Of a DNA stretch of 64,000 bases, positions 23,335 through 40,559 are shown in pieces. The stretch is from Nibricoccus sp. Lineage in GTDB: Bacteria > Verrucomicrobiota > Verrucomicrobiia > Opitutales > Opitutaceae. Made by a program: the position numbers and the translations under genes. How positions within the stretch are numbered: position 1 is the stretch's first letter; each line of letters opens with the position of its first letter. Below the pieces are notes generated by a model, which did not search any database, was not told the DNA's origin, and worked only from the letters and a program-made list of their open reading frames with translations. The stretch lies in the NCBI GenBank assembly GCA_047602425.1, contig JASGHG010000001.1, positions 3,616,001 through 3,680,000 of the forward strand. Direction: 5' to 3'.

Positions 23335-23360
23335 TGTTCGTCTGGCTAGATTGAACTACC

Positions 23361-25073
23361 CTAAGGGGTTGTAGGCGCGCGGAGGGACGACTTTAGTCGC
23401 ATAAAGTAGTTGCGAGCCGAAGAATCCTTGGCGGTTTTGAGGCCGAGCTCGATGAGTGATTGAGCATCTTCAGTGTAACCGTGCCGTGCTTTCAGCGCGG
23501 CATTTTTGAAGATGAGCTCGGTATTGCGTGGAAAGGCGAGCACTCCTTCATCGAGTATCGCTAAATTTTCGAAGGTAGGAACCGCTTCCGAAATCAACCA
23601 GGCGTCCGCGATGGTGAGATAGATTTCGGGGTGGAGCCGCTTTTGGGCAAGGGCGGCGTAGAGTGGCGTGAGAACGTCTTTGAGTTGGGTGGGGCTCAGT
23701 TTCTCGACGAGGTTATCTCGTTTGGCTTCTGCCATCCCGAGTTTTGCCAGCGTAACGTAGGGGGCAGGCTCATCGACTTTCGCCTGGACAGCTGCTTCCA
23801 GAAAGATGCGGGCGGCGGTGTAACTTTGTGTTTCATAGTTCAACAGACCAAGGGATCCCAGCATTCGTGGATCGGCGTGTTTCCGCATGATGGTTGAAAC
23901 GAGTTCGATGCGCGCATCGTCGTAGCGATTTACCAGGCGCAGGACGTCGCCTTTCATTCGGCCTGCTTCGGCATCGGTGGCTTGCCTGAGGTCCAGCGCG
24001 GGCGGCGGTGGCAATGCGGTAATTTTGGGAACGACTACGTGCTTATAGAATCCCCCTTGGACGTAGTCGCGAAGAGCAGATTCCATGTCGTCGAAACTCA
24101 TTTTGAAATAGCGCCTGAACATATCTTCGGTGACAGGTGCTTTGCAGGCTTCCTCAATAAACTGGAGAAAGGCATTCCGGTAACGACCCTTGTGGCTCAG
24201 CATCCCGAAGTGCACGAAGGCGAGGGCTTGATGCGAGAAGGTGCCGCCAGCCGACCTTTTGTATTCACGAGAGCCATACGTGATGGCGAAGAATTCAGGC
24301 ATGGAGAGCATGCGCCGCGGTATGCCCCTTTCATTGCTGAAATACCGGGTGAGGCTCATGTCGAGTTGAGCGAAGGTGATTTTGTCCTTTTTGACCTGCA
24401 AGGAGTCGAAATATCGCGCCACGCCCTCTTCAAGCCAGGCGGGCGGCCGTGGTTGGGTGCGGCTGAGCAGGAGCCGCACGTACTGTTGCCGAACCAGTGT
24501 TTCTCCGTCAATGAATTCGCTCCCTGTCCCCTGTGTGAACGTGTTACCTTCGCCGTCGGACCCTACAGAAACTCCGTCCCCGAAGAACGACTGAACATCC
24601 AGGTTGATCAGAAAGGTTGTGCCATAGTGGTCCTGGAGTGTGCTATAGACGAGGTTGCCGCGTCGCATGTCGATGCGCCCGGCTTCTTCGGGTGCAAGGG
24701 CCAGATATTTGTCACGCGAGCCGCATAAAACCAGAGTGATTTTGTCGCGTGAAATACTGGTGACTTGGGGAAAAAGCTGAACGAAGGCTTGATGGAATTT
24801 ATACAATTTAGCGGCGAAATCCTTTGTTTCCCGTTCCGAGGCATTGCTGAAAATCTCGAAATTTAAGATCTGGCCGGTCAGCCATTTTTCTTCGGGACGG
24901 AGTTTCAGTGTTTCCGACACGGCGAGTTCCGGCAGACGAATGATCTTTTCGGAGAGAAGCGAACCTTCATCAGCCGGAAGTATGGCTGCCGAGAGAATAA
25001 AAACCGCTAACGAGAGACATAAAACCTGGCGTTTAGTTGTTTGCATGCGAGGCCTTTCTTTCGATTCGGACAT
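23361..25073 (-). CDS. Secreted protein with a degenerate gluzincin-like domain and C-terminal TPR-like helices
   Basis: Signal peptide. PPAWLEEGVARYF is present, but the HExxH position reads QQYVR. The C-terminus has helical repeats. Confidence 0.65.
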   Translation of the reverse strand: MSESKERPRMQTTKRQVLCLSLAVFILSAAILPADEGSLLSEKIIRLPELAVSETLKLRPEEKWLTGQILNFEIFSNASERETKDFAAKLYKFHQAFVQLFPQVTSISRDKITLVLCGSRDKYLALAPEEAGRIDMRRGNLVYSTLQDHYGTTFLINLDVQSFFGDGVSVGSDGEGNTFTQGTGSEFIDGETLVRQQYVRLLLSRTQPRPPAWLEEGVARYFDSLQVKKDKITFAQLDMSLTRYFSNERGIPRRMLSMPEFFAITYGSREYKRSAGGTFSHQALAFVHFGMLSHKGRYRNAFLQFIEEACKAPVTEDMFRRYFKMSFDDMESALRDYVQGGFYKHVVVPKITALPPPPALDLRQATDAEAGRMKGDVLRLVNRYDDARIELVSTIMRKHADPRMLGSLGLLNYETQSYTAARIFLEAAVQAKVDEPAPYVTLAKLGMAEAKRDNLVEKLSPTQLKDVLTPLYAALAQKRLHPEIYLTIADAWLISEAVPTFENLAILDEGVLAFPRNTELIFKNAALKARHGYTEDAQSLIELGLKTAKDSSARNYFMRLKSSLRAPTTP

Positions 25074-25123
25074 TTACCGCGTAAGTGTCCCGCTTGGGAA
25101 AACCCCATCGCGGGGATCAATTT

Positions 25124-25528
25124 CTATTCTGCCTTGGTCTGGAAGGTGAGCTGGTAGGGCGTGGACGGTTGGCCGCTGGTGTCCTTGAAATTTTTAAACT
25201 TGGGACTGTTGATCCAAAAAGCGTACTTGGTGTTTGGCTTCAAATTTAGCTTCAAGATGAAGGTTTTGTGGTCATCGGAGAAACTTGGTTTGGAAGCGAT
25301 GAGATCGGGTGCGATAGGTTTCTTTTGGTCGACGGGCGTAAATGTAGCGCTGTCTTGCATCGGTTTGCTGAACGTCACGCGAATCTCGGTCAGACCGGGT
25401 GCGATGTCCTTTGCATTGGTTAGGGGTATGGTGCTGACAACCACGGGAACAGAAGAATCGGCGGCGAGCGCCGTTAGCGACGCGGACAGTCCGAGGATCA
25501 AAGCGCTGGTGATGAGTAGATTTTTCAT
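25124..25528 (-). CDS. Secreted single Ig-like (Big_5-like) domain protein
   Basis: Signal peptide followed by PVVVSTIP...EIRVTFSKPM...LKPNTKYAFWIN...FKDTSG...PYQLTFQT. Confidence 0.8.
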   Translation of the reverse strand: MKNLLITSALILGLSASLTALAADSSVPVVVSTIPLTNAKDIAPGLTEIRVTFSKPMQDSATFTPVDQKKPIAPDLIASKPSFSDDHKTFILKLNLKPNTKYAFWINSPKFKNFKDTSGQPSTPYQLTFQTKAE

Positions 25529-25552
25529 GGTAATTAGGTGGTTTTAAGTGGT

Positions 25553-27013
25553 TTAAGATTTGGCGATATCCTGTTCGAATTCGGCGATCCAAGCGTCCAG
25601 GTCGGAGCCGTATATGTTTTTTGCGGATTCGTAGGTTTGATTGGCGCAGAGCTGAAGGAACTTTTCATCGCCACCTTTTTGGTGAATTCGTTCCACGAAC
25701 GCGCCGGCGATGGGATAAATGAGATTGTCTTCGGTCCTTTTGAATGAGTTCTGCCAGAGTGAAACGATCGAGAAATTATGTGCTCCGGAGTTTTGGAACG
25801 CTTCACGTGCCGTTGCCAGGCGGTCTCGATCGCTGAGGTCGTAGTGTACGGCGATACCTTCGTTAATTAGACGTGTGGACCGGGTGGGCTTCACGGCATA
25901 GGCGCAAAGGATGTGGGTGAGTTCGTGACCCCTAGTTTGATCGACCCTGGAATGAACAACGACGCTAGCGGTATTGGCGAAACCGAGCTGGGAAAATCCG
26001 GCGACCTTGTTTGCTTCTTCCGATGAGCTCCACACGAAGAAATCAATTTTTTTTGGCGGAATTGCTTGGAAAAAAACATTCACGGTCTGAAATGCATCCT
26101 CACGCGTTTTACTGAATTTCTCCCGGACCTCGGTCGTGATCGTCGGGCTGAAATGGAAACGGATATGATCGGTCTCAACGATAGCCCAAGTTGAATAGCC
26201 GTCACTGAGCCCGAGCAGGTTGGCTATATCGTCAGTCTCAGCCAAGGCGCCTGGTTTGATTTTTTGCAGGGCTTGGCTGCACTTTTCATAGTCGCCTATT
26301 TGATAGTAAGCGCGTGCCAGATTGAGATAGGTCAACAATGTCAGGCCGGGGAAATCCGAGTCCGCATGTTTAAGGGCCTTGGTCAAAAATGGCAGTCCTT
26401 CCTGAGCCTGGAGTTTTTCAAGAAGGATTGTACCGCAGGTCGTAAGCATTTGTGGATCGTCGGGGGATTTCTTTAGTACGTTTTGTACTACGTCCAGGGC
26501 CTTGTCCCATTCACGTGATCGCGTAAGCCCTTTGATTTTCTCGATTACGTCGGCGTTTTTTGTTCTAGCGTGAGCCTTTTCTTCAGATTTAGCGGTGGCG
26601 CTGGTTTTGAAAAAGAACTGATAGGGCTGGGCATAGACGCCGTTGCGATCTTGAAAATGGCCGCCGCGCGGGCCGTTTATCCACAGACCGTAGGTGGTGT
26701 TGGGCTTTAACCTCGCATCCATGACGAAGGTCCGACCGTCGGCTTCCAGGCGGGGATTTGAGATTTTTTCAGGGACAATTTTTGTATCAACAGGGTTGAT
26801 CGTGTAACAGTCCTTCTTCACCGGCTTGCTGAAAGTGATGCGAATTTCGATAGGGCCGGAAGGAATCTCGGAGGCTCCGGCTTCAGGGAAAGTTTTGATG
26901 ACAACCGGTGGAATTTTATCGGTAGCGATTGTATCGACGGCGTGAAGCAATGGCAGGAATGAGAAGAGAAGCCCTGCGAAACAGGAGAGGGTGAGATTGA
27001 ACTTGGTTTTCAT
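25553..27013 (-). CDS. Secreted Ig-like + TPR + gluzincin metallopeptidase-like protein
   Basis: Signal peptide, Ig-like domain (ITFSKPV), TPR helices and HELTH...INEGIA zinc motif. Confidence 0.8.
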   Translation of the reverse strand: MKTKFNLTLSCFAGLLFSFLPLLHAVDTIATDKIPPVVIKTFPEAGASEIPSGPIEIRITFSKPVKKDCYTINPVDTKIVPEKISNPRLEADGRTFVMDARLKPNTTYGLWINGPRGGHFQDRNGVYAQPYQFFFKTSATAKSEEKAHARTKNADVIEKIKGLTRSREWDKALDVVQNVLKKSPDDPQMLTTCGTILLEKLQAQEGLPFLTKALKHADSDFPGLTLLTYLNLARAYYQIGDYEKCSQALQKIKPGALAETDDIANLLGLSDGYSTWAIVETDHIRFHFSPTITTEVREKFSKTREDAFQTVNVFFQAIPPKKIDFFVWSSSEEANKVAGFSQLGFANTASVVVHSRVDQTRGHELTHILCAYAVKPTRSTRLINEGIAVHYDLSDRDRLATAREAFQNSGAHNFSIVSLWQNSFKRTEDNLIYPIAGAFVERIHQKGGDEKFLQLCANQTYESAKNIYGSDLDAWIAEFEQDIAKS

Positions 27014-27093
27014 AACAGAAAGATTTCAGAAGTTTACGGTTACCCGGCCCACGACGCAGCCGTGGCGGATGATTAAATAAAAGAGACAGTGGA

Positions 27094-28584
<1,491 letters not shown>

Positions 28585-28631
28585 CTCCTAATCAGGAGAA
28601 AGGCGGATTTGTTACACGAATTCTCAGAAAA

Positions 28632-29396
28632 TTATCCCAACATGCTGAGCAGGTGGGCGATTTCGTCGTCGATTTCATCGGGAGTGCTCACGGTTTGGGC
28701 GATTTCGTCGCGAAATACTTCACGGTACCGCCGCCGGATTCGATGGGCGGCCACGCGGGCGGCGCCGGCGGAAAGTCCCAACGCCTTGGCGATAACGTCG
28801 TAGCTGATTTCTCCCTTTGGCGCGGTTAGGAAAATTTTGAGCTGATCAAACTCCGTCGCTTTGTTTGCGGCGACATATTCCTCGCGCAGGCGGTTCATCG
28901 TTTGATCGAGCAAGGTCAACGCCCAGCGGCGCTCGTAAATGACATCGGCCGACGCCTCGTTCAGCGGCTCGGTGCGGTAAAGATTTTCCGCGGCTTCGAC
29001 ATCGAGCGAAAGCGGTGCGACGCCGCCACCTCGCCGTTGCGCGGAGGCCCGGTCCAGAACGTTGGCGAGAAAACGTTTGAACGCGACGAGCAGGAAGGTG
29101 CGGAAGCGTCCTTTTTCGGGAGCCACGGAGCGCAAAAAATCTTTCTTTAGCAGTTGGGCGAAAAATTCCTGCGTGTGATCCTGGGCGTCGTGCAACGCGA
29201 AGCCCTGGCGTCGCGCGAAGGCGTAGAGAGGCTGCCAATAGGTTCGGCAAAGCGTTTCAAGCGCGCGATCGGCCTGCGGCGATTCCTTGGCCTGGGCGGA
29301 AAGCACCACCGTCCAACGAGTCGCGACAAAGCGCTCACTCTTGGGCTGGTCTGGGGTTTCAGTATCGGGCTCCACGGCAAAGCAAGTCAGAGGCAT
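28632..29396 (-). CDS. ECF sigma-70 factor of the Ser/Thr kinase-associated type
   Basis: FVATRWTVV, YWQPLYAF, AQDHTQEFF and KGRFRTFL motifs, region-4 HTH; directly upstream of the kinase. Confidence 0.9.
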   Translation of the reverse strand: MPLTCFAVEPDTETPDQPKSERFVATRWTVVLSAQAKESPQADRALETLCRTYWQPLYAFARRQGFALHDAQDHTQEFFAQLLKKDFLRSVAPEKGRFRTFLLVAFKRFLANVLDRASAQRRGGGVAPLSLDVEAAENLYRTEPLNEASADVIYERRWALTLLDQTMNRLREEYVAANKATEFDQLKIFLTAPKGEISYDVIAKALGLSAGAARVAAHRIRRRYREVFRDEIAQTVSTPDEIDDEIAHLLSMLG

Positions 29397-29642
29397 TAGC
29401 CGTGAATCGCGAGTTTAGAAAGGAAATTCTAGGAACACAGGTAGCCTCTACGAAATAGTTTGGGATGCACGTCTTGCGGCCATTCAGTTGCGCAGGATTT
29501 CGGGGGGACGAGTGAAGAAACTCCGTAACATCGGGCGGAATAACCCTAATATATAGACAAGTAGGCATAGGAATACGCGCGATTAGTAAAAATTAACCTG
29601 TCCCGGCCTGTGCCTAAACCACCCACAACATCCATAACCATT

Positions 29643-30474
29643 ATGAAACGCTCAGCCAATATCGTGTCCCTCGCGGGCGCGCTTGCCTCGCTCCTCCTTC
29701 TGTCCTTGACCGGCTGCAACTCTCCGGTGACGCCGATCGAAACAAAGATCACCCCCAAAGTCATCACCATCGCCAAAATCAATTCGAAAGGGATAAATCC
29801 CCAGAACGTCAACGACTGGCTATCGCCAAGCTGGCAGGACATCGAGACGTGGTGGCGAAACCTGCCGACCACACAGCCGCCGCGCGAAGGACTGGAAGCG
29901 GTGGTGGGCTGGGAAATTCTTTTCGATACCCGGGGAACCGATTCGAAGTTCCGGCAGGATTTATATCGCGCGGGTTTCAGCTACGATTTGAGCACGCGAC
30001 AGAACCTCAAGGGGCTGGTCACGAAGGCGACCATGACGTTTAGGTGCTACACGCTGCCGTCGGGCGTTGCACCCAACACCTTGTGTCAGCCGATGACCGG
30101 TGCCGGAGGTTCGTTGGTGGTGCTCGCTCCGTCGGCAACACTGCCAACTGCACCTTTGGATCTGGCCTACCTTGGCTCGGCTCGCAGCGGCGGCGCCTTA
30201 TCCCGCGGGCTCTCGTATTTTTGCGATTCCTCAGGGGCCCTATATCAGCGGAACGGTGGCACCCGGAGTGACTTCGAGCCCGACCGGACAGGGCACGGCC
30301 AGCTACACGGTGGATGTGACAGCCTACGTTAACGCAGCCTTGGAACGTGGTGCATCCGAGCTCTCCTTCATGCTGACGAGTTCTGATGAGGCCAACGTCA
30401 CGGTCTTCCCTCCGGGACCACTGGATTGCAAGACCGTCTATAAATTCGACGATTTAGTCATCCAACACCTTTGA
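29643..30474 (+). CDS. Putative lipoprotein, frameshifted around 30150-30200
   Basis: Lipobox LSLTGC after MKRSANIVSLAG. The coding sense appears to continue in the 30100..30474 frame (AAPYPAGSRIFAIP...YTVDVTAYVNAAL). Confidence 0.6.
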
Positions 30475-30478
30475 ATAG

Positions 30479-30520
30479 AACTAAATGGCAGGGTGCTGTG
30501 CCGCCCTGCCGTTTAGTTTT
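30479..30520. terminator. Probable (possibly bidirectional) terminator hairpin
   Basis: aactaaatggcaggg...ccctgccgtttagtt followed by T's. Confidence 0.75.
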
Positions 30521-30588
30521 GAAGCTGCTAGCTGACAGGCACGGCGGAGCGTGCGGAGGCCTTGAGCCCATCAAGCGTTGCGGCCGGA

Positions 30589-30903
30589 GTACCGATCGCT
30601 TTCGGCATCGTTCTCCTGGACGAAGACGGAGTACTGGTTTCAGCCAGGAAAATAGACTTGGACTGAAAAAGAGTACTCGAAGGCCGTGGAGGAATTCTCC
30701 CTGACCGAAATGGGATACTCCTGAGCGCCCGAGTGGTATGGGTTGTTTCCACAACCGTAGACCATATCCTGAAAGGCGTACGCATTTCAGCCGAAGCAGT
30801 ACAGCGATGTCCGAAGGGAGTACGCGCGCGGGAACACCCAGTAGAAGCCAGGACGCAGGTGGTATTCGGGCGAGGGCAGGGAATACGCTGGATTGGATTT
30901 GGC
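30589..30903. repeat. Degenerate tandem array of 15 units with exact 21-bp period and GGAGTACTC-like core
   Basis: An RTW core starts at 30589 and recurs every 21 bp to 30883. Purine at position 1 in 15/15 units, T at 2 in 15/15, A at 3 in 13/15; linkers are variable. Confidence 0.85.
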
Positions 30904-31135
30904 GATCTGCGATTTCTTTGCCGAGTGGGGCGGCCGGTTCACGGGGTTTTGGTCAATCATGATTGGTTAACCATTGTCCTCAGGAGGATGCCGAAAAAGA
31001 CGCTGGGTGTGCAAAAATTCAGAGGGTGGGTCCGTAAATGTCCCACCCTCCCTGATAAGATGGTTGTATCACGATTCAGAAAGCAACTGGCCAATCCCGG
31101 CCGGCCGGAGGATCGAAAAATAAAATACAAAACAT

Positions 31136-31520
31136 ATGCCACGTCTAAAACGCACCCTGTCCAAGGACATTCAAAACGCCGCTGCCCGTGCGGCCGGAAT
31201 CGAGTCGATCGATCCCTCACTCGATCTTGGCAACGGCATGTCGCTTGAGGCCTTCAAAACCACGATCGAGGACGCCCGCGCGAAGCAAGCGGCCTACAAC
31301 ACCCTGCTTTCGCAGGCCGATGAAGCGAAGAACATCTTCGAGCTGGCTGAGCAAAGTACGAAGGACTTCTCGGAGCGCATGCTCGCCGCGATCGCCGCTA
31401 AGCACGGCTCGCAACAGCAATGAATACGAACAAGCCGGAGGCACCCGCCGTTCCGAGCGCAAGCGCAGCACCCGTGTCGCTGCTGCCACTGCGACCACCG
31501 CGTCAGAAAAAGCAGCCTAA
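31136..31520 (+). CDS. Small alpha-helical conserved hypothetical protein (about 127 aa), with one extra base at 31409
   Basis: MPRLKR...SIDPSLDLGNGMSL...SERMLAAIAAKHG, then after one extra T: RNSNEYEQAGGTRRSERKR. This resembles a widespread uncharacterised family I recall from cyanobacteria and Bacteroidota. Confidence 0.75.
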
Positions 31521-31545
31521 CGGAGATCTAGAATCAGTAACCACA

Positions 31546-31577
31546 AGCCGGAGCGGACACGCTCCGGCTTTTTATTT
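31546..31577 (+). terminator. Rho-independent terminator
   Basis: Hairpin agccggagcg-gaca-cgctccggct followed by a T run. Confidence 0.85.
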
Positions 31578-31734
31578 CTGTGGATGGATACGATCTGGAA
31601 AAGAGAGATGTTGCGACCAACGCCGAATCATTAGCTAACGACTAAAAACTGAAAAATTTTATCCCTTTTCGGCTTCCTTCTCCAAACCTGACTCGTTTTT
31701 ATATTCTGGTATCTTTTGAATGGTTGTGACGGAA

Positions 31735-32733
31735 TCATGCACGGTAGAGGTTTTTACCTTCATGTTTTATCCAATATGCATATACCGCTTGCTTTCCTCC
31801 AATTTCAGCCGTCCCTTTAGAATAGTCGGGATTGTATATCGATGGCTGAGGGTAGTGGACACTGCACTCCTTTTGAGAAGCGTAGAGGCACATTGCTGCT
31901 GAAATGGGCTTCGGACCAAAAGGTGCGAACGATAGTTTGGTGCTGGTTTCAGACGCCAACACGGTAATCCGATTAAACGCTGAATTTAAATCTATCGTAG
32001 GAATCCGATAGTGAGCGAACTTGGTGCGTTCACGACCTTCCTCAAGCCGATAAATAGATTCCCACGCTCTATGAACTGCCGCAATAGCTGCGGGAAAAGG
32101 AATCAGTAACTTAATCGATTCATGTTTTTTTATCTCTGCAATATGACTTTGCATACTCTCCACCATGAATCCGACACTAGCAACTAATGTTTCTTGTTTT
32201 GAATTGTCACATTGAAAACCAGGAATATTGAGCCATTCAGACGCTTTCTCGCTTAGTGTACGTTTGTTGTCGTATTTTTCTGGAATAGCATACGTGACAA
32301 CCAAGTTATTTACCTTATTACTGCGGAGGAAATATCGCAGTAAAGGGAAGAAAAAACGCTTAGGTAGTGATGTGATATCTAAGATTATTGAATCCTCGAT
32401 TAAACTTTCCAATTCTCTACCGATAGCGATTATTTTATGCAATTCGGTGAGTAGTTCGACAGGTCGTATAATCTCATTGGATTGACCACCAGAAGCGTAG
32501 AACTCTGTTTGACGCTCTGTGAGAAGCTGTTTGCAGCGCTCCGTGTATTTGGATGGCAGGTCGTGGATCTCCAGCAATCGAGTAAATCGCAATTCGCTTA
32601 AGCCCCTAAGCCATTTCCATGATGCTAACGAACGTTCTTCTGTACCTAATGCTCCCAAAATGCCCCATTGGTGTCGAGATGACAAATTAAGAGCCCAATC
32701 GAGCAATCCCCAAGGACGATATTCGTTTGGCAC
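31735..32733 (-). CDS. Hypothetical protein, possibly tandem CARF-like/Rossmannoid domains (gene 4 of the AT-rich operon)
   Basis: GTG start 2 nt after the upstream stop; ILDITSLPKR and SFAPFGPKPIS strand-loop-helix motifs. Confidence 0.7.
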   Translation of the reverse strand: MPNEYRPWGLLDWALNLSSRHQWGILGALGTEERSLASWKWLRGLSELRFTRLLEIHDLPSKYTERCKQLLTERQTEFYASGGQSNEIIRPVELLTELHKIIAIGRELESLIEDSIILDITSLPKRFFFPLLRYFLRSNKVNNLVVTYAIPEKYDNKRTLSEKASEWLNIPGFQCDNSKQETLVASVGFMVESMQSHIAEIKKHESIKLLIPFPAAIAAVHRAWESIYRLEEGRERTKFAHYRIPTIDLNSAFNRITVLASETSTKLSFAPFGPKPISAAMCLYASQKECSVHYPQPSIYNPDYSKGTAEIGGKQAVYAYWIKHEGKNLYRA

Positions 32734-32735
32734 GT

Positions 32736-34831
32736 TTAGAAAAGTGGAAGTTCTTCCTGCCAGTCTTTATTAGTCTTCATTTGTTTTAAACGGGATGATC
32801 GACGTGGGCTGGAACTACGTTTATTATCCAAATTTACCGTTGTAAAAAGGATCTCTGCTGCGCGTGCAATCTCTAATAGTTTATCGATGTGCCAATAGAG
32901 AGGTTCTTTTGTGTGTGCAGCTGGAATTTGGAAAATTGGAGATAATACAGGGTTTAAATAAAACTTTATACGCTGTTCGCCACGTTTATTCTTAGTTGTA
33001 TGCGGAGTTGAAACAAGGTCACCATAACCCACGGCCTCTATCAAAAAGCGCCAAATCTCTCTATTGGATCTGGCTTCAAGTTCGTCTCGACGGAGCGAAA
33101 ATCCATTTGCTCCAGGATAGCTCATTGCAAGGTCGTCCCTGAGCTGTTCACGAAATTTTCGTCCGAGTTCATCTATAAATCGTCGGCGAACGTCGCCTCC
33201 GGGTTGCTCACTAAGTTTTTCGTGCCATTCACGACTGGCATTTTGGATACCAGCGACCGAGTTTCAGGTAGAATACTGCCTTCTGCGATGAGGTTTAGCC
33301 GCTTTGATTCAGAGTCTATAAGACGCTGCTCCTTTAGAAATAGGTCCCAAACGGCATGACAGAGATGGAGAAAAACAGTTATATTTGGGGCACTCAGAGC
33401 GATGACATCGTCACTGCCAAACCAAATTAAGCGTTGTGCCCGGCGTGCCGTTAACTGCAGCACTGCCTGCATTAGGCGTTCTTTGCGCCACCATTTTTTG
33501 AGCCAACTATTTTCTAGCGGCGGTGGTTTTGCGCGATTGGGCATTTTACCACGACCGCCTGTCTGTCTTCCCCACGCAGCGGCGAGTACTGCCAGTAATG
33601 GGTCTTTAGTTGTTAGATGTTGAAACCATTCGATCCATTTGGGCGACCAGTTTTCAGCCTCAGTTAACCTCAAAACACGGTTAAGCTGTTCTTGGCTGGG
33701 TGGACTACTTGCCAAGAGAGCAGCCCTATTGGAGGGGGCAGGTGAGCGACCGAAAATACGATTGAAGATCTTAACATCGGTTTCTACATCACCACCGTAT
33801 GCCCATTTTATTCTTCGATAAAAGGCATCCGAGGCAAACCTAGGAAAGGTCCATCCGGTTCGTCTTTCCCTTCGTGCAAGCATATCTTCAAGGTCTACTA
33901 GAAGGTAATCGCGGCGTGATTCTAACTTTGCGCCGCTTCCATGGACTTGCAGATACTCCGGTTGGTTCCATCCATAACGCCGAGTGCCAATTCTATAGTG
34001 AAGTCGAAGATCGCGAGACGCGAAGGCTCTATTTAGCATTTGGCGAAAACCAATTCGAACCCGCTGTTGGTGCTCACTGGCATCTTGGTGGAGCTCTTCT
34101 AACTGATCTACTCTTATAAAACATTTTACATCTCTCTTCAAGACGCCGCTTTGTTTGAGGCATTCAACGGTGCGCGCAATTGGCTCGCCAATAGCCGTTT
34201 TCGTTGCGGCGAGAAGATCAGGTATAGTTATATCTGGATTACTAATCCACCGTCGGTACGCTTTTATTCTGAATGAAAGGCGCTCTAGTACAGAATTTAG
34301 CGAGTCACAACCGTCTAGTGCTCCAAGCCAGCAGTCTTGTGGGGCCAATTTTTGAGCAAATTCTGCACTTCTCTCAATTTGGACGATGTTGTCGAAGACT
34401 TCTGGCCGAGTGCTGATGGCGACAATATTATTCAGCAGATCTTGAACGACAAGACTGTTGAAGAAATCGGCGAAAAAGAAAGGCAGGCGCTCGACGTCGA
34501 AATCATCGCCTTTACCTAGAGTTACTTGTCCAATATCGCAGATACCACTTTTGATTAAATGTATGCCGCCACTGACAAATCGTGCTGCACGGGCATTGAC
34601 TGGGAACGGCTGGTTTTTGTTGGCAAACGCAATACGAGTTTCTGGAAATAGTAAACGGAGGATCATTGACTTACCGCACCCTTGAGTGCCGCTCAAAACC
34701 ACATTACCCTCTTGAAATAGAGGGTTTATTGCCGATGTCAGTGGTATAGGACTGAATAAGTCTACAAAGGCTTCTTCATTGACGCTATCTGAAAGGTACA
34801 ATTCCTGAAATGGATTAATTTGCCAGTCCAT
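32736..34831 (-). CDS. ORC/CDC6-like P-loop ATPase (about 698 aa), frameshifted near 33258
   Basis: Walker A LSGTQGCGKS and Walker B-like IRVDQLEEL. After ILPET the alternative frame reads VAGIQNASREWHEKL...DDLAMSYPGANGF and runs into the 32736..33125 ORF. Confidence 0.8.
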
Positions 34832-34837
34832 AACCTA

Positions 34838-35899
34838 TTAAGCTCGTTTAGATCTGGGAAATAGCGGTTGCCAGTTTCCTGTCACTGATTTGTGATGAAC
34901 TAGTGGTAGAGTGTTATTTGGAGTATTACTATGGGAGACATAGGTTGCACCAGTTTCCTGATATCCAAACGCCGTGTATGGAGATGTATTTTTATCGGTA
35001 TGTGTACTGCCTGCAACCAATCCAAAAGTACTGTTGGCTAGTTTTTCAATTTCAGCGGCGATTTCTATTCCTTCTTTACCCCGCCTCTTGGGGCCTAGCA
35101 AATTCTCTTCGCTTAAAACGATAATCGGGGAAACATCTAGATTGGGAAGATCTTTTCGCAAATCGTTGATCTTGCTCAACCCCGGTGCACAAATAACTAG
35201 CGGGATGAATAGTATAGGGACGTTTAGATTCTGAGCAGCCCACTTAATTGGCCCAGTAACTTGTGTTCCGCTGCCAACAAAATCATCCAGCAGCACCAAT
35301 CGTTTTAGCGACGGAGCGCCCGCGGAAGAATTCGGTTTACTCATATATTTCTTAAATTTCGCTATAGTGCCATCTACTTCCTCAGGACTCTTGAAATGAT
35401 AATGATCGCGAAAACAAGGTCTATAATTCTCCGTAATGAGATTGATGTGGAGAAAATCTGCAATTTTCATACTATCCGTAACAGGACAGTACCACGTGAG
35501 AGTATGGAGTTCTTCTTGTAACCGAATTTGGAATTTTGGATCTAATAGTGAGAGTTTTTCTTTCTCAATTATCCATTGAGTGATTGGACCTGTGAAAGCC
35601 GTTTGATACAACGCTTCCATGTCATCTTGAGAGAAGTATGTAATGCGCCGCGCATATTTTAAGAGTAATTGCCTCTCCTCATCGGTTTTTACATTCCCCA
35701 TCCATTTGGCGAGTCGAACCATGTAGTCTGCATTAAAAGCTGGATTTTTTGTAGGAAGATAGTTGCGCCAATCATTGTCGGAAAACCACTGCAACCTGTC
35801 GTAAATCGCTTGATATTGAGATGCTAAACCGGGTTCCAAATCTGGACCTTGAGTTAAGTCCCAATTTTTAATTAATCTTTGGAGCTCCAAGAGGTCCAT
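34838..35899 (-). CDS. Phosphoribosyltransferase-like protein (PRTase-CE-like)
   Basis: PRPP-loop LVLLDDFVGSGTQ; C-terminal FGY...NTPNNTLP...WQPLFPR. Confidence 0.8.
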   Translation of the reverse strand: MDLLELQRLIKNWDLTQGPDLEPGLASQYQAIYDRLQWFSDNDWRNYLPTKNPAFNADYMVRLAKWMGNVKTDEERQLLLKYARRITYFSQDDMEALYQTAFTGPITQWIIEKEKLSLLDPKFQIRLQEELHTLTWYCPVTDSMKIADFLHINLITENYRPCFRDHYHFKSPEEVDGTIAKFKKYMSKPNSSAGAPSLKRLVLLDDFVGSGTQVTGPIKWAAQNLNVPILFIPLVICAPGLSKINDLRKDLPNLDVSPIIVLSEENLLGPKRRGKEGIEIAAEIEKLANSTFGLVAGSTHTDKNTSPYTAFGYQETGATYVSHSNTPNNTLPLVHHKSVTGNWQPLFPRSKRA

Positions 35900-35900
35900 C

Positions 35901-37082
35901 TTAACGGTGGTTTAATAGACCAGTAGTTAAATCTGCTGCGACAGCGCCGAGGGGCGGGGGGACGGCATTACCGATTATCCGATATTGAGCAATTTCGCTT
36001 CCTCGGAAAACATAGTTATCGGCGAAGCCTTGAATACGCGCTGCTTCTCGAACTGTAAAACCTCGGTGATGTTGCGGGTGCAGAAAATAACGCGGAGAGC
36101 CAAACCGAGTGTCAACCGTGCAACTTGGCTTATTCCAAGCAAGTCGTCGAAACTTTCCATTAAATGTTCCCACGAGGTCAATGCCTCCTTCGACACGCCT
36201 CAAGTAGCCTTTTGTAATCAGCCCTTCTGTTAATCGGTGAAAGCGGATGCCTAGTGCTGCTTCCAATCGCTCAATGCTTACAGGATCTGCGTCACCATGA
36301 TCTCTTTGGCGTTCCTGTCTTCTCAGACGCCGCAACAATTCAAGAACCGTGCGTTCGTGTTCAGTTGTACGTCCGAATACCTCAGGAATATCCCATGTAG
36401 CTATAGCATTTGCCCCCCCGCGTACATTTGACAATTTCTGTCCCTGTTTAATCCGCAATGCGATCTTCCAATCACGAGAGCCGACAGATAAGTTGCGAGG
36501 TAGATGGTTTGAGTGGGAACTTACCCCTCGAAGAACAGTGTGAAGATCGCTAGGCTTAAACCTAGGTATCACGAATTTCATGTCCCGACCAGTTCGCCAC
36601 GCAAAGAAGAGTACACGACGTCGTAGTTGTGCCATGCCGAGTTCTGATACTTGGCAACGCAGAGTATGTGTGCGATAACCACGAAGCCTCATCAAATATT
36701 CGAGCGACTTGAAATATTGGGCGTGTTCACCAGAGAGGGCGCCAGCGACATTTTCGACCACGAGAACTTTGGGTAATACGCGGTTGGCTAAATAACCGGT
36801 TAGGGTGAGCAGGTGGTTTCGATGATCATCAACTTGCCGCTTACCCACTGTAGAGAACCCTTGACAGGGAGGCCCAGCGATCAGTGCGTCGACTCCGTTT
36901 AATGTGTGCTCGTTCGGTATCCCGTTCGTCAGGTCTGCTCGGAAAATCGGTCCACCAACGTTGGCAGAAAAATTTTCGATAGCTTCTGGGTCACAGTCAT
37001 AAGCACCACTCGGATTGAAACCACGGGATGAGAACCCGAGATCAAAACCTCCACATCCAGAGAATAGACTAGCGAACTTCAT
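35901..37082 (-). CDS. DNA (cytosine-5) methyltransferase
   Basis: Motif I LFSGCGG, IV GPPCQGFS, VI VENV, VIII QLRRRV, IX REAARIQGF and X IGNAVPP. Confidence 0.96.
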   Translation of the reverse strand: MKFASLFSGCGGFDLGFSSRGFNPSGAYDCDPEAIENFSANVGGPIFRADLTNGIPNEHTLNGVDALIAGPPCQGFSTVGKRQVDDHRNHLLTLTGYLANRVLPKVLVVENVAGALSGEHAQYFKSLEYLMRLRGYRTHTLRCQVSELGMAQLRRRVLFFAWRTGRDMKFVIPRFKPSDLHTVLRGVSSHSNHLPRNLSVGSRDWKIALRIKQGQKLSNVRGGANAIATWDIPEVFGRTTEHERTVLELLRRLRRQERQRDHGDADPVSIERLEAALGIRFHRLTEGLITKGYLRRVEGGIDLVGTFNGKFRRLAWNKPSCTVDTRFGSPRYFLHPQHHRGFTVREAARIQGFADNYVFRGSEIAQYRIIGNAVPPPLGAVAADLTTGLLNHR

Positions 37083-37672
37083 ATGAGATCCTTACGCTAG
37101 TGTGGCGTTGCGCAGATTATTCTTTAAGAATGGACGCCAATTTAGTGACAAGTTTGGGTTTAAGAGACGTCGTAGGTACATTGCTGGAAGCCCTCTTTTT
37201 TTGTATCAGGCGGGAGATGACTAGTTTGATAATTTCTGCGATTACGCAATCTTGGATTCTTCCTGCGTACAGAAATTAACGAAGACGCAGAACGCAGATA
37301 CGGAGCAGGCAAGCAGTGAAGGCTGGCAGAAATTTAATGTTTTAGATTGAGGAGGTTTTTGCAGAACGGTGGGTGATGATGGCTGCAAGGCGATATCTGG
37401 GGAATTTGTCTTGGCTACGGAGACTTATTATCATCGGGCGAGGGCTTTTTTGGGTTGGGCTGCATTTGTACAATGGCCTGCACAGTGGCGGTCACGTCCG
37501 CCTTGTCGACGTGGAGGTATTTCTGAGACGAGCGAATGACGGTCTCAGGCTTTGACTCATGAGAAACGCACCACGTGGCGCGAGTAGAAAGGTGGCCTCA
37601 CACGCAACTACCTTGGTTGATGTCTCGGTGGATTACGTTGTGGTGCAGAATCGTAAAACAAGACTGCAAAGC

Positions 37673-39157
37673 CTACTCGGTGGTCCACGAACGGGCACGC
37701 TCGATGGCTCGGCTCCAACCTCGGCGGTGAACTTCGCGTTTCGTTGAGTCCATTGTCGGGAGGAAGCGGTGCTCTTCGCTCCAGCGCTGGGCGATTTCTG
37801 ATGGTTCGCGGAAGATTCCTACGGCGAGACCGGCGAGGCAGGCGGCGCCGAGAGCGGTTGTCTCCACCGTATTTGGCCGAACCACGGGACAGTTGAGAAG
37901 GTCGGCCTGGAATTGCATGAGCAGGTTGTTGGCGGCGGCGCCGCCGTCGACGCGCAGCTCTTTGAGATGGATGCCGGTGTCGGCTTCCATCGCTTTCAGG
38001 ACATCGGTTACTTGGTGGGCGATCGCTTCGACTGCGGCTCGCGCGATATGGCCCGCTCCAGTTCCGCGCGTCAGACCAAGGATGGCGCCCCGGGCATCTT
38101 GATCCCAATACGGCGCACCCAAACCAACGAAAGCCGGCACAAAATAAACTCCGCCGTTGTCGGGGACCGACGTGGCCAGTCGCTCGACTTCGCGCGCCTC
38201 GCGGATGAAACCGAGCGCATCGCGCAAGTACTGAACCACGGCACCCGCCACAAAGACGCTGCCTTCCAGGGCGTATTCGATCCGACCATTGAGGCGCCAG
38301 GCGATCGTGCTGAGCAAACGCTGGCGCGAACGCACGCGCTCCAGCCCGGTGTGCATGAGCATGAAGCAGCCCGTGCCGTAGGTGTTTTTGGCCATGCCGG
38401 GTTGCAGGCAGGCTTGCCCAAACAGGGCGGCTTGTTGGTCGCCCGCGATGCCGGCGATGACCACACCCGGCACGACTTCGGTGGCGGTGGCGTAGACTTC
38501 GCTTGAATCCCGAATCTCGGGGAGGAGCGCGCGGGGAATGGTGAAGAGGGCCAGCAGCTCGTCGTCCCATCTGCCCGAGGAAATATCCACCAGCATCGTG
38601 CGCGAAGCGTTCGACGCATCGGTCAGGTGGGACTGGCCGCCCGTGAGTTTCCACACGAGCCAGGAGTCGATCGTGCCAAAAGCGAGTTCGCCTTTTTCCG
38701 CCTGGGCTCGCGCCCCCGGGACGTGATCGAGCAGCCAGCGAATCTTGCTCGCCGAGAAATATGCATCAATGACCAAACCGGTTTTCTCCGCCACGAAAGG
38801 CGCGTGACCGGCCTCGCGCAGTTGTTCGCAGTAGGCGGCGGTCCGCCGATCCTGCCACACGATGGCCGGCGCGATGGGACGTCCCGTTTTTCGATCCCAG
38901 ATCAGCGTGGTTTCGCGCTGGTTGGTGATGCCGAGCGCAGCGAGATCGCCGGGGCGCAAGTGAGCCTTGGCCAGAGCTTCCGTGATCGTGGCCGCCTGGC
39001 TTTGCCAGATTTCCTCGGGATCGTGTTCCACCCAGCCTGGCTGCGGAAAGTACTGGGGAAACTCCCGCTGTGCGGAGGCGACGAGTGCTCCCGCCGAATC
39101 GAATATCATCGAGCGCGAACTCGAGGTGCCCTGATCGATGGCGAGGAGATACTTCAT
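37673..39157 (-). CDS. glpK: Glycerol kinase
   Basis: [42 protein letters not shown] and YALEGS motifs. Confidence 0.97.
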
Positions 39158-39372
39158 CGGCAGATGAGGAGGGGTAGGAAGACAACGTTCGGTCGCTTAG
39201 AGCGAAGGCGCTACCTCCCGGTAGTCAAGGCCGAGCCGCGGCGAATCGGACTTGCCGGTGGCACCCAGGTGTGACGAGGAAATGCACACTCAGGCACCGA
39301 GGCAAAAAGAGTCTTTGCGGATCTCTGCGATCTTCGTGTTAAACCATTTATTACTCGGTCTGGCATCAACAA

Positions 39373-39427
39373 GGTAGGGGCAATGCTCCGTCATTGCCCG
39401 AGGACATTGCGGAGCATTGTCCCTACC
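39373..39427. repeat. GTAG-type REP doublet (inverted)
   Basis: ggtaggggcaatgctccg ... cggagcattgtccctacc (17/18 complementary). Confidence 0.8.
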
Positions 39428-39565
39428 GGCGCTACCGCGCCAAAGTGTCAAATCGAGAGGTAAATGGAAATGAACGATGTGGATGGAGGCCGGTTAGACA
39501 GAACTGTCGAGAAGAGCGAGAAATTATCCGGTGCCGAGAAAATCCCTTGAGGGAAAGGCCGGTGC

Positions 39566-39778
39566 CTAGCGCGTCTTGGCGCGGGCGGTCTCTTTGGTCT
39601 GCTTTTCGGCAATCATCTTGACGGCTTGTCCAATGCGGGCGGCGCGGGTTTCGGGGCGCTTGGCTTCGCCGATCCATTTCAGATATTCGCGTTGGTGGGC
39701 CGCGGTGCAGTCGGCGAAGAATTCGCTCAAGCCGGCCTTGGCGAGCGCGGCTTCCAAATCAGGCAGTGGCGTGGACAT
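39566..39778 (-). CDS. YdeI/OmpD-associated family small protein
   Basis: LPDLEAAL...FF...HQREYLKWIGEAKRPETRAARI. Confidence 0.85.
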   Translation of the reverse strand: MSTPLPDLEAALAKAGLSEFFADCTAAHQREYLKWIGEAKRPETRAARIGQAVKMIAEKQTKETARAKTR

Positions 39779-40559
39779 GGTGGGGTGTGCTTTTCGAACT
39801 CCAGCGATAAAAGATCAGGCCGATGACGAGCAAGGTCACGCCGAGGCTGCCGGTTTTCATGATGGCGGCGCCCAGGAGTTGGTCTTCCATCGGGCCGAAG
39901 GCGGCGAAGAGGCGTGGCGCGTATTCGTAGGTGGGATACAGGACGTTGTCGGAAAAGGCGATGAAGGCGAAGAGCGGCGTCATGCCGATCGTCACGGCGA
40001 CGAGGTAGAGCACGCGACCGGCGTAACCGAGCGGCGGATACTCAGGCGATGGGCTGAGGATCGGCCACCAGTAAAAAAGCGCGGCGCCGAAAAACATCAG
40101 GTGTTCGAGCACGTGGATGTTTTTGTCGCGGAGCGCGAGGTCATAGAGTCCAGGAGCATGCCAGACGGAAAGGGTGATGGTATAAAGCAACCCGCAAACC
40201 ACCGGATGCGTGAACAGGCGCAACGGTACGTGTAAAGAAGACCGGCGTGTTATAGGTTGAAGCAGCCAAGTCGGCAGCCCGGTGAGAAAGAGCACCGCGG
40301 AAACGTAGATCAAGAGCTGGTGCTGGATCATGTGCGCGCTGAGAAGAAAACGCTCACCGGCCTGGTCGAGGGGTGAACCAACCGCCAGATAGAAAACGAA
40401 CAGGGCGAGGTAAAAGCGAAGCGCGTGACCGCGGGGAAACGGCTGGCCATGCGCGAGGCAGTCGCGGAGAGGTCCGGTCAGCAAGGCGAAGAGCCACCCG
40501 GCGACAATGAGTCCGCCGATCAGGTAGGGTTCATTGTGCCAGTGCCGCCAGTCGATCAT
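39759..40559 (-). CDS. ctaG: Cytochrome c oxidase assembly factor, caa3-type CtaG family
   Basis: SPLD...SAHMIQH, WHAPGLYD, HVLEH, FYWWP and DQLLGAAIMK motifs. Confidence 0.88.
   Translation of the reverse strand: MIDWRHWHNEPYLIGGLIVAGWLFALLTGPLRDCLAHGQPFPRGHALRFYLALFVFYLAVGSPLDQAGERFLLSAHMIQHQLLIYVSAVLFLTGLPTWLLQPITRRSSLHVPLRLFTHPVVCGLLYTITLSVWHAPGLYDLALRDKNIHVLEHLMFFGAALFYWWPILSPSPEYPPLGYAGRVLYLVAVTIGMTPLFAFIAFSDNVLYPTYEYAPRLFAAFGPMEDQLLGAAIMKTGSLGVTLLVIGLIFYRWSSKSTPHHVHATA

Follow-up and report, generated by a model that had tools for sequence, protein, structure and literature searches.

What purpose is served by a DNA methylase operon that brings no restriction nuclease with it? The question is raised by four co-oriented genes on the minus strand at positions 31735-37082 of a 64,000-nucleotide stretch of the Nibricoccus sp. 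genome (assembly GCA_047602425.1, contig JASGHG010000001.1, positions 3,616,001 to 3,680,000), referred to below as the window. The genes are separated by gaps of 1, 6 and 2 nucleotides, as a preliminary description of this DNA had reported, and encode a cytosine-C5 methylase, a phosphoribosyltransferase (PRTase), an ATPase and a double-CARF protein. We conclude that they form one conserved cassette, which belongs to a predicted, unnamed class and, as the preliminary description had also supposed, very probably has a role in defence. Loci carry L-numbers and genomes G-numbers, G000 being the host genome (99.97% complete).

Gene 1 (35901..37082, minus strand) encodes an intact DNA cytosine-C5 methyltransferase of 393 residues (PF00145, E 1e-47; TIGR00675 above cut-off), and the catalytic motifs I, IV (GPPCQGFS), VI (ENV), VIII, IX and X are kept across the 17 aligned sequences. 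The target-recognition region (residues 206-330) is 52-89% identical to 16 homologs, against 38-78% for residues 1-165, and exceeds the latter in identity in each of the 16. Residues 225-315 match unnamed clusters in the ESM Atlas; a winged-helix insert in the methylase is an impression only. Gene 2 (34838..35899, minus strand) encodes a 353-residue protein of the PRTase-CE family (PF24390, 117 bits) that carries LLDDFVGSGTQ, the binding loop for phosphoribosyl pyrophosphate (PRPP). It matches the PADLOC retron profile PRTase_III-A (E 1.5e-23) and, weakly, DS-32A (16 bits, cut-off 250). The protein models as a type I PRTase fold (predicted local distance difference test score, pLDDT, 74): ranks 1-13 of the fold search were PRTases or PRTase-like entries, the best being uracil PRTase 1bd3 (Z 10.0, root-mean-square deviation 3.7, 170 residues aligned).

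Gene 3, which spans 34831 to 32736 on the minus strand, encodes an ORC-CDC6-like ATPase. The family assignment of the preliminary description stands; the implied single gene does not, as the coding sequence lies in two frames. The N-terminal piece (33173..34831) covers PF24389 positions 13-438 and contains Walker A (GTQGCGKS) and Walker B (VDQLEE), the motifs singled out earlier together with the PRPP loop, and the C-terminal piece (32736..33263) covers positions 461-564; the pieces score 76 and 48 bits (cut-off 27). A Walker A of the form GxQGxGK[ST] and a Walker B of the form hhhhDQ are found in 18 of 18 close ATPase sequences.

Gene 4 (31735..32733, minus strand; 332 residues) had been called CARF-like but unknown. 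The first term was apt and the second was not, for the protein belongs to the catalogued CARF6 family (PADLOC PDLC01923, E 2e-85). Its model (pLDDT 93.9) is taken up over its whole length by two CARF lobes, with no further domain. The best fold match is Can1 (6sce; Z 14.1, root-mean-square deviation 3.4, 231 residues aligned), followed by Can2, Cdn1, Csm6, Card1 and Cam1 (Z 10.6-12.9) and by the SAVED protein Cap5 (8ysq, Z 8.8). Profile comparison between the two halves was not significant, and the lobe duplication rests on the fold. Foldseek returned only KaiC and universal stress protein (USP) matches of low template-modelling score, which were set aside for the Can1-led fold search; sequence searches of the PDB with gene 4, the PRTase and the ATPase gave nothing useful. 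The PADLOC search and the structure predictions for genes 2 and 4, both proposed in the preliminary description, placed these proteins in families, and its report of no restriction nuclease agrees with the profile searches, which assigned none of the four proteins to a nuclease family.

Are the four genes a unit? A single-sequence scan of GTDB with gene 4 was empty; an alignment query, built from 100 of the 120 gene-4 homologs listed (538 were found), gave 22 loci from Verrucomicrobiota, Acidobacteriota, Nitrospirota and Pseudomonadota. The order methylase, PRTase, ATPase, CARF was found in 18 of the 18 loci with enough upstream DNA, the others being three cut by contig ends and one fragment. 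Metagenomes provided 69 loci, some of them near-duplicates of one another or of GTDB loci. At least 3.7 kb of upstream DNA was available in 24, of which 20 were complete cassettes, three were partial gene-4 matches, and one (L158) had an SPPY-type methylase instead. The neighbourhood analysis, another of the checks proposed earlier, therefore shows conserved linkage.

In order to avoid selection by the layout of the window, we also ran a search with PF24389 as the sole query, covering 401, 401 and 301 genomes from three phyla. Positive genomes numbered 13, 15 and 10, about 3-4% of those sampled, so the ATPase class is not rare. From these we took 35 loci; the host genome, two genomes already represented and one that seemed a duplicate were left out, and one second copy was included. 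A CARF6 protein is adjacent or fused to the ATPase in 32 of the 35. The enzyme slot is occupied by a PRTase in 11 loci, calcineurin in 7, HD-CE in 4 and a fused kinase in 8 (five by profile match and three inferred from size, motif or tree position), with matches of the sister loci to HD-CE (PF24391), wHTH-Calcineurin_assc (PF24408) and CARF_STK_AAA. PRTase-CE, HD-CE and calcineurin never occur two together, although a dGTPase-like HD gene lies farther upstream in L074. A DNA methylase lies within the operon in 20 of the 35 loci. It is Dam-like in all five calcineurin loci that have one and C5 in 4/4 HD-CE loci, and the methylases paired with a PRTase are of C5, SPP and NPPF type, in two loci each. 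One locus of the sample carries ThyX.

Several variants were seen in this sample. A subtype (L067, L070, L072, L080, L083) in which we saw no methylase combines PRTase, ATPase and CARF6 with a PfkB kinase and a HAD-like protein of 620-650 residues, which matches HAD in 2 of the 5 loci; the CARF proteins of these loci form one fully supported clade. L081, L092 and L095 encode fusions of about 1240 residues with ATPase and CARF6 regions, each behind a gene for 404-414 residues, which in L081 resembles pyrimidine-nucleoside phosphorylase and partners the kinase fusion. The sister species G004, of the same genus as the host, carries yet another subtype (L071), made up of a C5 methylase, a 165-residue unknown, a kinase-ATPase and CARF6.

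Which of the proteins acts on the cell? Gene 4, having no effector domain, cannot itself be the output, and the slot of the PRTase is common to hydrolases and kinases; for both reasons we read the PRTase as the probable effector. As described in the available portions of two reports, the PRTase ShosT is toxic and kills by disturbing purine metabolism (PMC11961720, PMC12961424). The preliminary description had wired the genes differently, with the ATPase as sensor or switch and the PRTase making or depleting a nucleotide that gene 4 reads; in such a circuit the ATPase would sense the invader and the PRTase would make an unusual nucleotide signal. The PRTase does retain its PRPP-binding loop, and in a cassette and host in which no cyclase was found the CARF ligand needs some source. 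However, nothing would act downstream of a gene 4 that has no effector domain, the slot is held in sister cassettes by phosphohydrolases (HD-CE, calcineurin) and kinases, and PRTases are the toxic output in what is accessible on ShosTA. We consider such a circuit distinctly improbable.

If the PRTase is the effector, what does the CARF protein read? No signal cyclase is encoded in the cassette, and SMODS, Cmr2 and Csm1 (TIGR02577 and TIGR02578 for Cas10) were not found in the host genome, so the ligand must come from elsewhere. R34 and K275 of gene 4 are conserved without exception in a diverse set of 33 CARF6 sequences and are located in different lobes, and one invariant Arg and one invariant Lys so placed would suit a small phosphorylated ligand. 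A possible source is suggested by Metis and PUA-Cal-HAD, in which, according to the parts of the reports at hand, methylated nucleotides from phage-degraded host DNA are the ligand and N6-methyl-dAMP (m6dAMP) triggers a calcineurin effector (10.1101/2025.11.05.686725, PMC12871103). The Metis preprint, in the sections available, predicts methylcytosine-sensing types as well as types with their own methylase (10.1101/2025.11.05.686725). The pairing of calcineurin with a Dam-like N6-methyladenine (m6A) methylase in our sister cassettes appears as if echoing both systems.

We tentatively favor a methylation-primed, Metis-like alarm that reads the 5-methylcytosine debris left when a phage degrades host DNA. 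In this model the methylase is predicted to methylate cytosines of the host chromosome at C5, and methylated nucleotides or short oligonucleotides would be set free once a phage drives the breakdown of that chromosome. This debris would be bound by the double-CARF protein; the ATPase, as a relay, would then turn on the PRTase, whose predicted action is to deplete PRPP or upset the balance of nucleotide pools such that the infected cell stops (abortive infection). Methylation may mark self, as the preliminary description proposed, or may pre-load the danger signal, and both readings are live. That DNA is the target of the methylase is supported by vsr, the only recurring defence-type fifth gene, which follows the cassette in four GTDB loci and 7 of 41 metagenome loci; vsr repairs deaminated 5-methylcytosine. 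Elsewhere in the host genome (G000:C1:1465452-1467885) another C5 methylase is accompanied by vsr. Extended to the whole class, the proposal would describe a widespread, modular immune family in which a tandem CARF reads methylated DNA debris rather than cyclic oligoadenylates, a methylase of the cassette pre-labels the chromosome, and the ATPase links the sensor to effectors that attack nucleotides and can be exchanged for one another; in this general form we think it rather unlikely to be right.

A number of observations weigh against the debris-reading alarm. No methylase was seen in 12 of the 32 CARF6 loci (the five with PfkB and the 620-650 residue protein, and seven others). In the CARF and ATPase trees whole cassette subtypes travel together, such that tracking of the ligand and tracking of the effector are not separated, and one well-supported CARF clade mixes C5 with SPPY-type methylases. 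Approximately unbiased (AU) tests gave p 0.11 for a C5 group and p 0.44 for a PRTase group; an m6A grouping was rejected (p 0.005), but methylase-less calcineurin loci were counted against it, which makes that test uninformative. The CARF proteins that gene 4 resembles in fold were solved with cyclic oligoadenylates, not methylated mononucleotides. Walker B reads D-Q in the clade of the window and D-D or D-E in other subtypes, so that ATP hydrolysis is not assured. Defence genes neighbor the cassette loci only occasionally. Finally, Metis and PUA-Cal-HAD, as far as the available descriptions go, have no counterpart of the ATPase, and their PUA sensor and HAD partner are not matched in this cassette subtype.

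The conservation of the methylase bears on a second explanation, in which the methylase marks self and recognises its site, the ATPase assembles on unmethylated incoming DNA and switches on the PRTase, and the CARF protein is an adaptor or regulator, in the manner of BREX (bacteriophage exclusion). The recognition region is the most conserved part of the methylase, as expected under constraint by a partner or a fixed site, and in the accessible part of a recent report BrxC, an ATPase of the ORC/Cdc6 clade, is the scaffold for a complex that includes the BrxX methylase (PMC12839542). On the other hand, PglZ, BrxA, BrxB and BrxL are absent from the PADLOC matches listed, and the invariant CARF residues are left unexplained. 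Unrelated methylase classes, or none, accompany the same ATPase-CARF pair, which is easier to reconcile with a diffusible product than with a protein interface. Scanning of this kind is in our judgment unlikely.

The cassette has the marks of a mobile, foreign element, and the preliminary description had already noted that it is more AT-rich than its flanks. Its GC content of 45.5%, compared with 57.4% for the genome, makes it the lowest-GC 5.3-kb stretch of the host genome (0 of 964 equally long, non-overlapping segments are as low), and across loci the cassette is lower in GC than its flanks in 18 of 21. Relatives of gene 4 were not found in 60 related genomes. The genes flanking window positions 23335 and 39790 adjoin in G002, which places the cassette within a 16-kb variable stretch. 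At other loci the cassette lies near tRNA genes, and it is accompanied by integrases at L007 and L016 and by a transposase at L002; in the window there are no tRNA genes, no terminal repeats were found, and the listed ORFs (open reading frames) showed no integrase. Plasmids gave no match to the ATPase, and viral contigs no relative of gene 4.

In two loci (L014:4351-12126 and L066:11914-12288) the cassette sits inside remnants of a type I restriction-modification locus. It directly follows a truncated hsdM-like gene and in L014 also precedes an hsdR fragment, an arrangement that looks like the replacement of part of the locus. This setting and the patchy, mobile distribution would suit a guard or addiction module, in which the methylase or the methylation state is watched and a toxic PRTase is released when a phage anti-restriction protein acts or the cassette is lost. 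PRTases are toxins in ShosTA (PMC11961720, PMC12961424) and effectors of type III retrons, in both cases going by incomplete copies of the sources. The trigger of such a module would be hypothetical, methylase-less subtypes exist, and a role for the CARF pocket is not explained; we regard it as quite unlikely.

The cassette might also have nothing to do with phages and be a mobile epigenetic or nucleotide-stress regulator, or a module for element exclusion. No NCBIfam anti-phage model scored above its own cut-off for the window proteins or for 27 relatives, and no defence neighbors lie in the window. Yet the components match families used in defence, and conflict systems typically swap their effectors and spread in a patchy manner. 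We hold a function outside defence to be very unlikely.

Is this copy functional? DNA alignment to L002 and L004 shows a single gap: one base is missing near 33258, and the final ~30 codons of the N-terminal ATPase piece are out of frame. That piece is 70% identical to residues 1-527 of L002 and the C-terminal piece 78% identical to residues 527-666. Homologs are single ORFs of about 700 residues, so the family as such is not split. A programmed split was likewise rejected: the ATPase is encoded by one ORF in 17 of the 18 complete cassettes from GTDB and in each of the 29 longer metagenome loci where it is present. A broken gene is also present in 3 of 18 other complete GTDB cassettes (L006, L017, L020), and unbroken copies of the cassette occur in complete genomes (L004, L008). 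The break had evidently been seen before, since the preliminary description asked for the ATPase to be repaired.

Two neighboring plus-strand genes are also interrupted. A small gene at 31136-31520, which has three paralogs in the genome, carries one extra base near 31405 that shifts its frame when it is set against two of them, and the frame of a lipoprotein-like gene at 29610-30474 shifts near 30190 in comparison with the homolog in G003 (L049, L060). By comparison, about 35 core genes of the window show zero frame changes against G002 and G004. Background levels in the host genome are 3 to 5 broken genes among 166-169 orthologs, including surE (400-kb sample of G004), and 11 isolated one-base gaps per 180 kb, several of them clustered, the faulty genome not being settled for every gap. 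Three breaks within 3 kb exceed this background, as would fit either early decay or a variable region whose bases were poorly called. No sequencing run was listed that might cover the break, metagenome contigs contained no second copy of its region, and the four window proteins looked up were single-member clusters. General decay of this copy is not indicated: changes at conserved sites were in no clear excess (ATPase 6/154, one beside the break; PRTase 5/65; methylase 2/154; CARF 4/75), although the ATPase and PRTase of this copy top the range of the close group. On balance we lean slightly toward an assembly error; if the break is real, this copy would be inactive.

The surroundings of the cassette contain a few further features. 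The variable stretch (23335-39790) lies between ABC permease and cytochrome oxidase genes, is empty at the site in G002 and is substituted by about 8 kb in G001; it also carries glpK and a pair consisting of a kinase and an ECF (extracytoplasmic function) sigma factor. An intergenic element of ~60-95 nucleotides at about 39371-39467, which has many copies of 80-96% identity in sister genomes, is possibly a REP-like (repetitive extragenic palindromic) repeat. Between the end of the cassette and its convergent neighbor is a hairpin (31545..31570), terminator-like on the plus strand, with an 11-pair stem followed by a T run; terminator and promoter sites are at chance level in number, overall not above shuffles.

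How does the cassette compare with known systems? It matches three catalogued families, PRTase-CE (PF24390), ORC-CDC6-like (PF24389) and CARF6 (PADLOC PDLC01910-01925), and the window has the ATPase (in two frames in the assembly), adjacent CARF6 and adjacent CE enzyme that make up, at the profile level, the class CARF6/PF24389/'-CE' effector. The families reportedly stem from Nicastro et al. 2023 and Makarova et al. 2020. Neither a named or tested system matching the cassette in full nor an experimental test of it was found among the literature matches listed, a coverage outside which those two likeliest descriptions lie; the portions seen of Makarova 2014 and Domainator do not describe it.

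Several systems could be set apart by their components. The cognate endonuclease of a type II restriction-modification system is absent by family searches of the four genes. There was no match to the DISARM class 2 or Druantia cores (DrmABC, DruE), only the generic methylase models DrmMII and DruM having matched. An ancillary effector of type III CRISPR would go with Cas10 (TIGR02577, TIGR02578), which was not found in G000, and with a fused effector domain, which gene 4 lacks. The Can1 and SAVED tandem-CARF sensors likewise have two CARF lobes per chain; gene 4 differs in having no nuclease or protease domain, and neither Cas10 nor a CD-NTase is in the cassette or was found in the host. BREX type 1 shares a methylase and an ORC/Cdc6-clade ATPase without a restriction nuclease, but as outlined in the part of the report available its methylase is N6 rather than C5 and its ATPase has 1200-1300 residues rather than about 700, and the cassette adds CARF and PRTase (PMC12839542). 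A PRTase-fold protein in phage defence is common to ShosTA, type III-A retrons, Ophion (10.1101/2025.09.30.679545) and DS-32 (10.1101/2025.01.08.631726), as judged from partial texts; the cassette has no DprA antitoxin, reverse transcriptase, radical SAM, PHP or NADAR partner. No reverse transcriptase is encoded by the four genes or the flanking ORFs; msr-msd RNA was not searched for.

The closest likeness is to Metis and PUA-Cal-HAD, which, in the passages available to us, are methylation-linked and nuclease-free and use a nucleotide-attacking effector (10.1101/2025.11.05.686725, PMC12871103). The cassette may work like Metis but is not a member of it. Its sensor is a tandem CARF instead of PUA, with no PUA-like domain among the other three genes, each accounted for by its own family; no HAD phosphatase is present in the window cassette or recurs beside the 21 close GTDB loci; the probable effector is a PRTase and the predicted mark 5-methylcytosine. 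If a modular debris-reading family does exist, this subtype would be the first 5-methylcytosine-triggered, self-labelling alarm, it would add a new class of CARF ligand and supply the ligand for a CARF clade that has no cyclase partner, and it would explain a class of 'orphan' methylases. It would then represent the form of genome-degradation sensing, directed at cytosine and equipped with its own methylase, that is predicted in the accessible text of the Metis preprint (10.1101/2025.11.05.686725).

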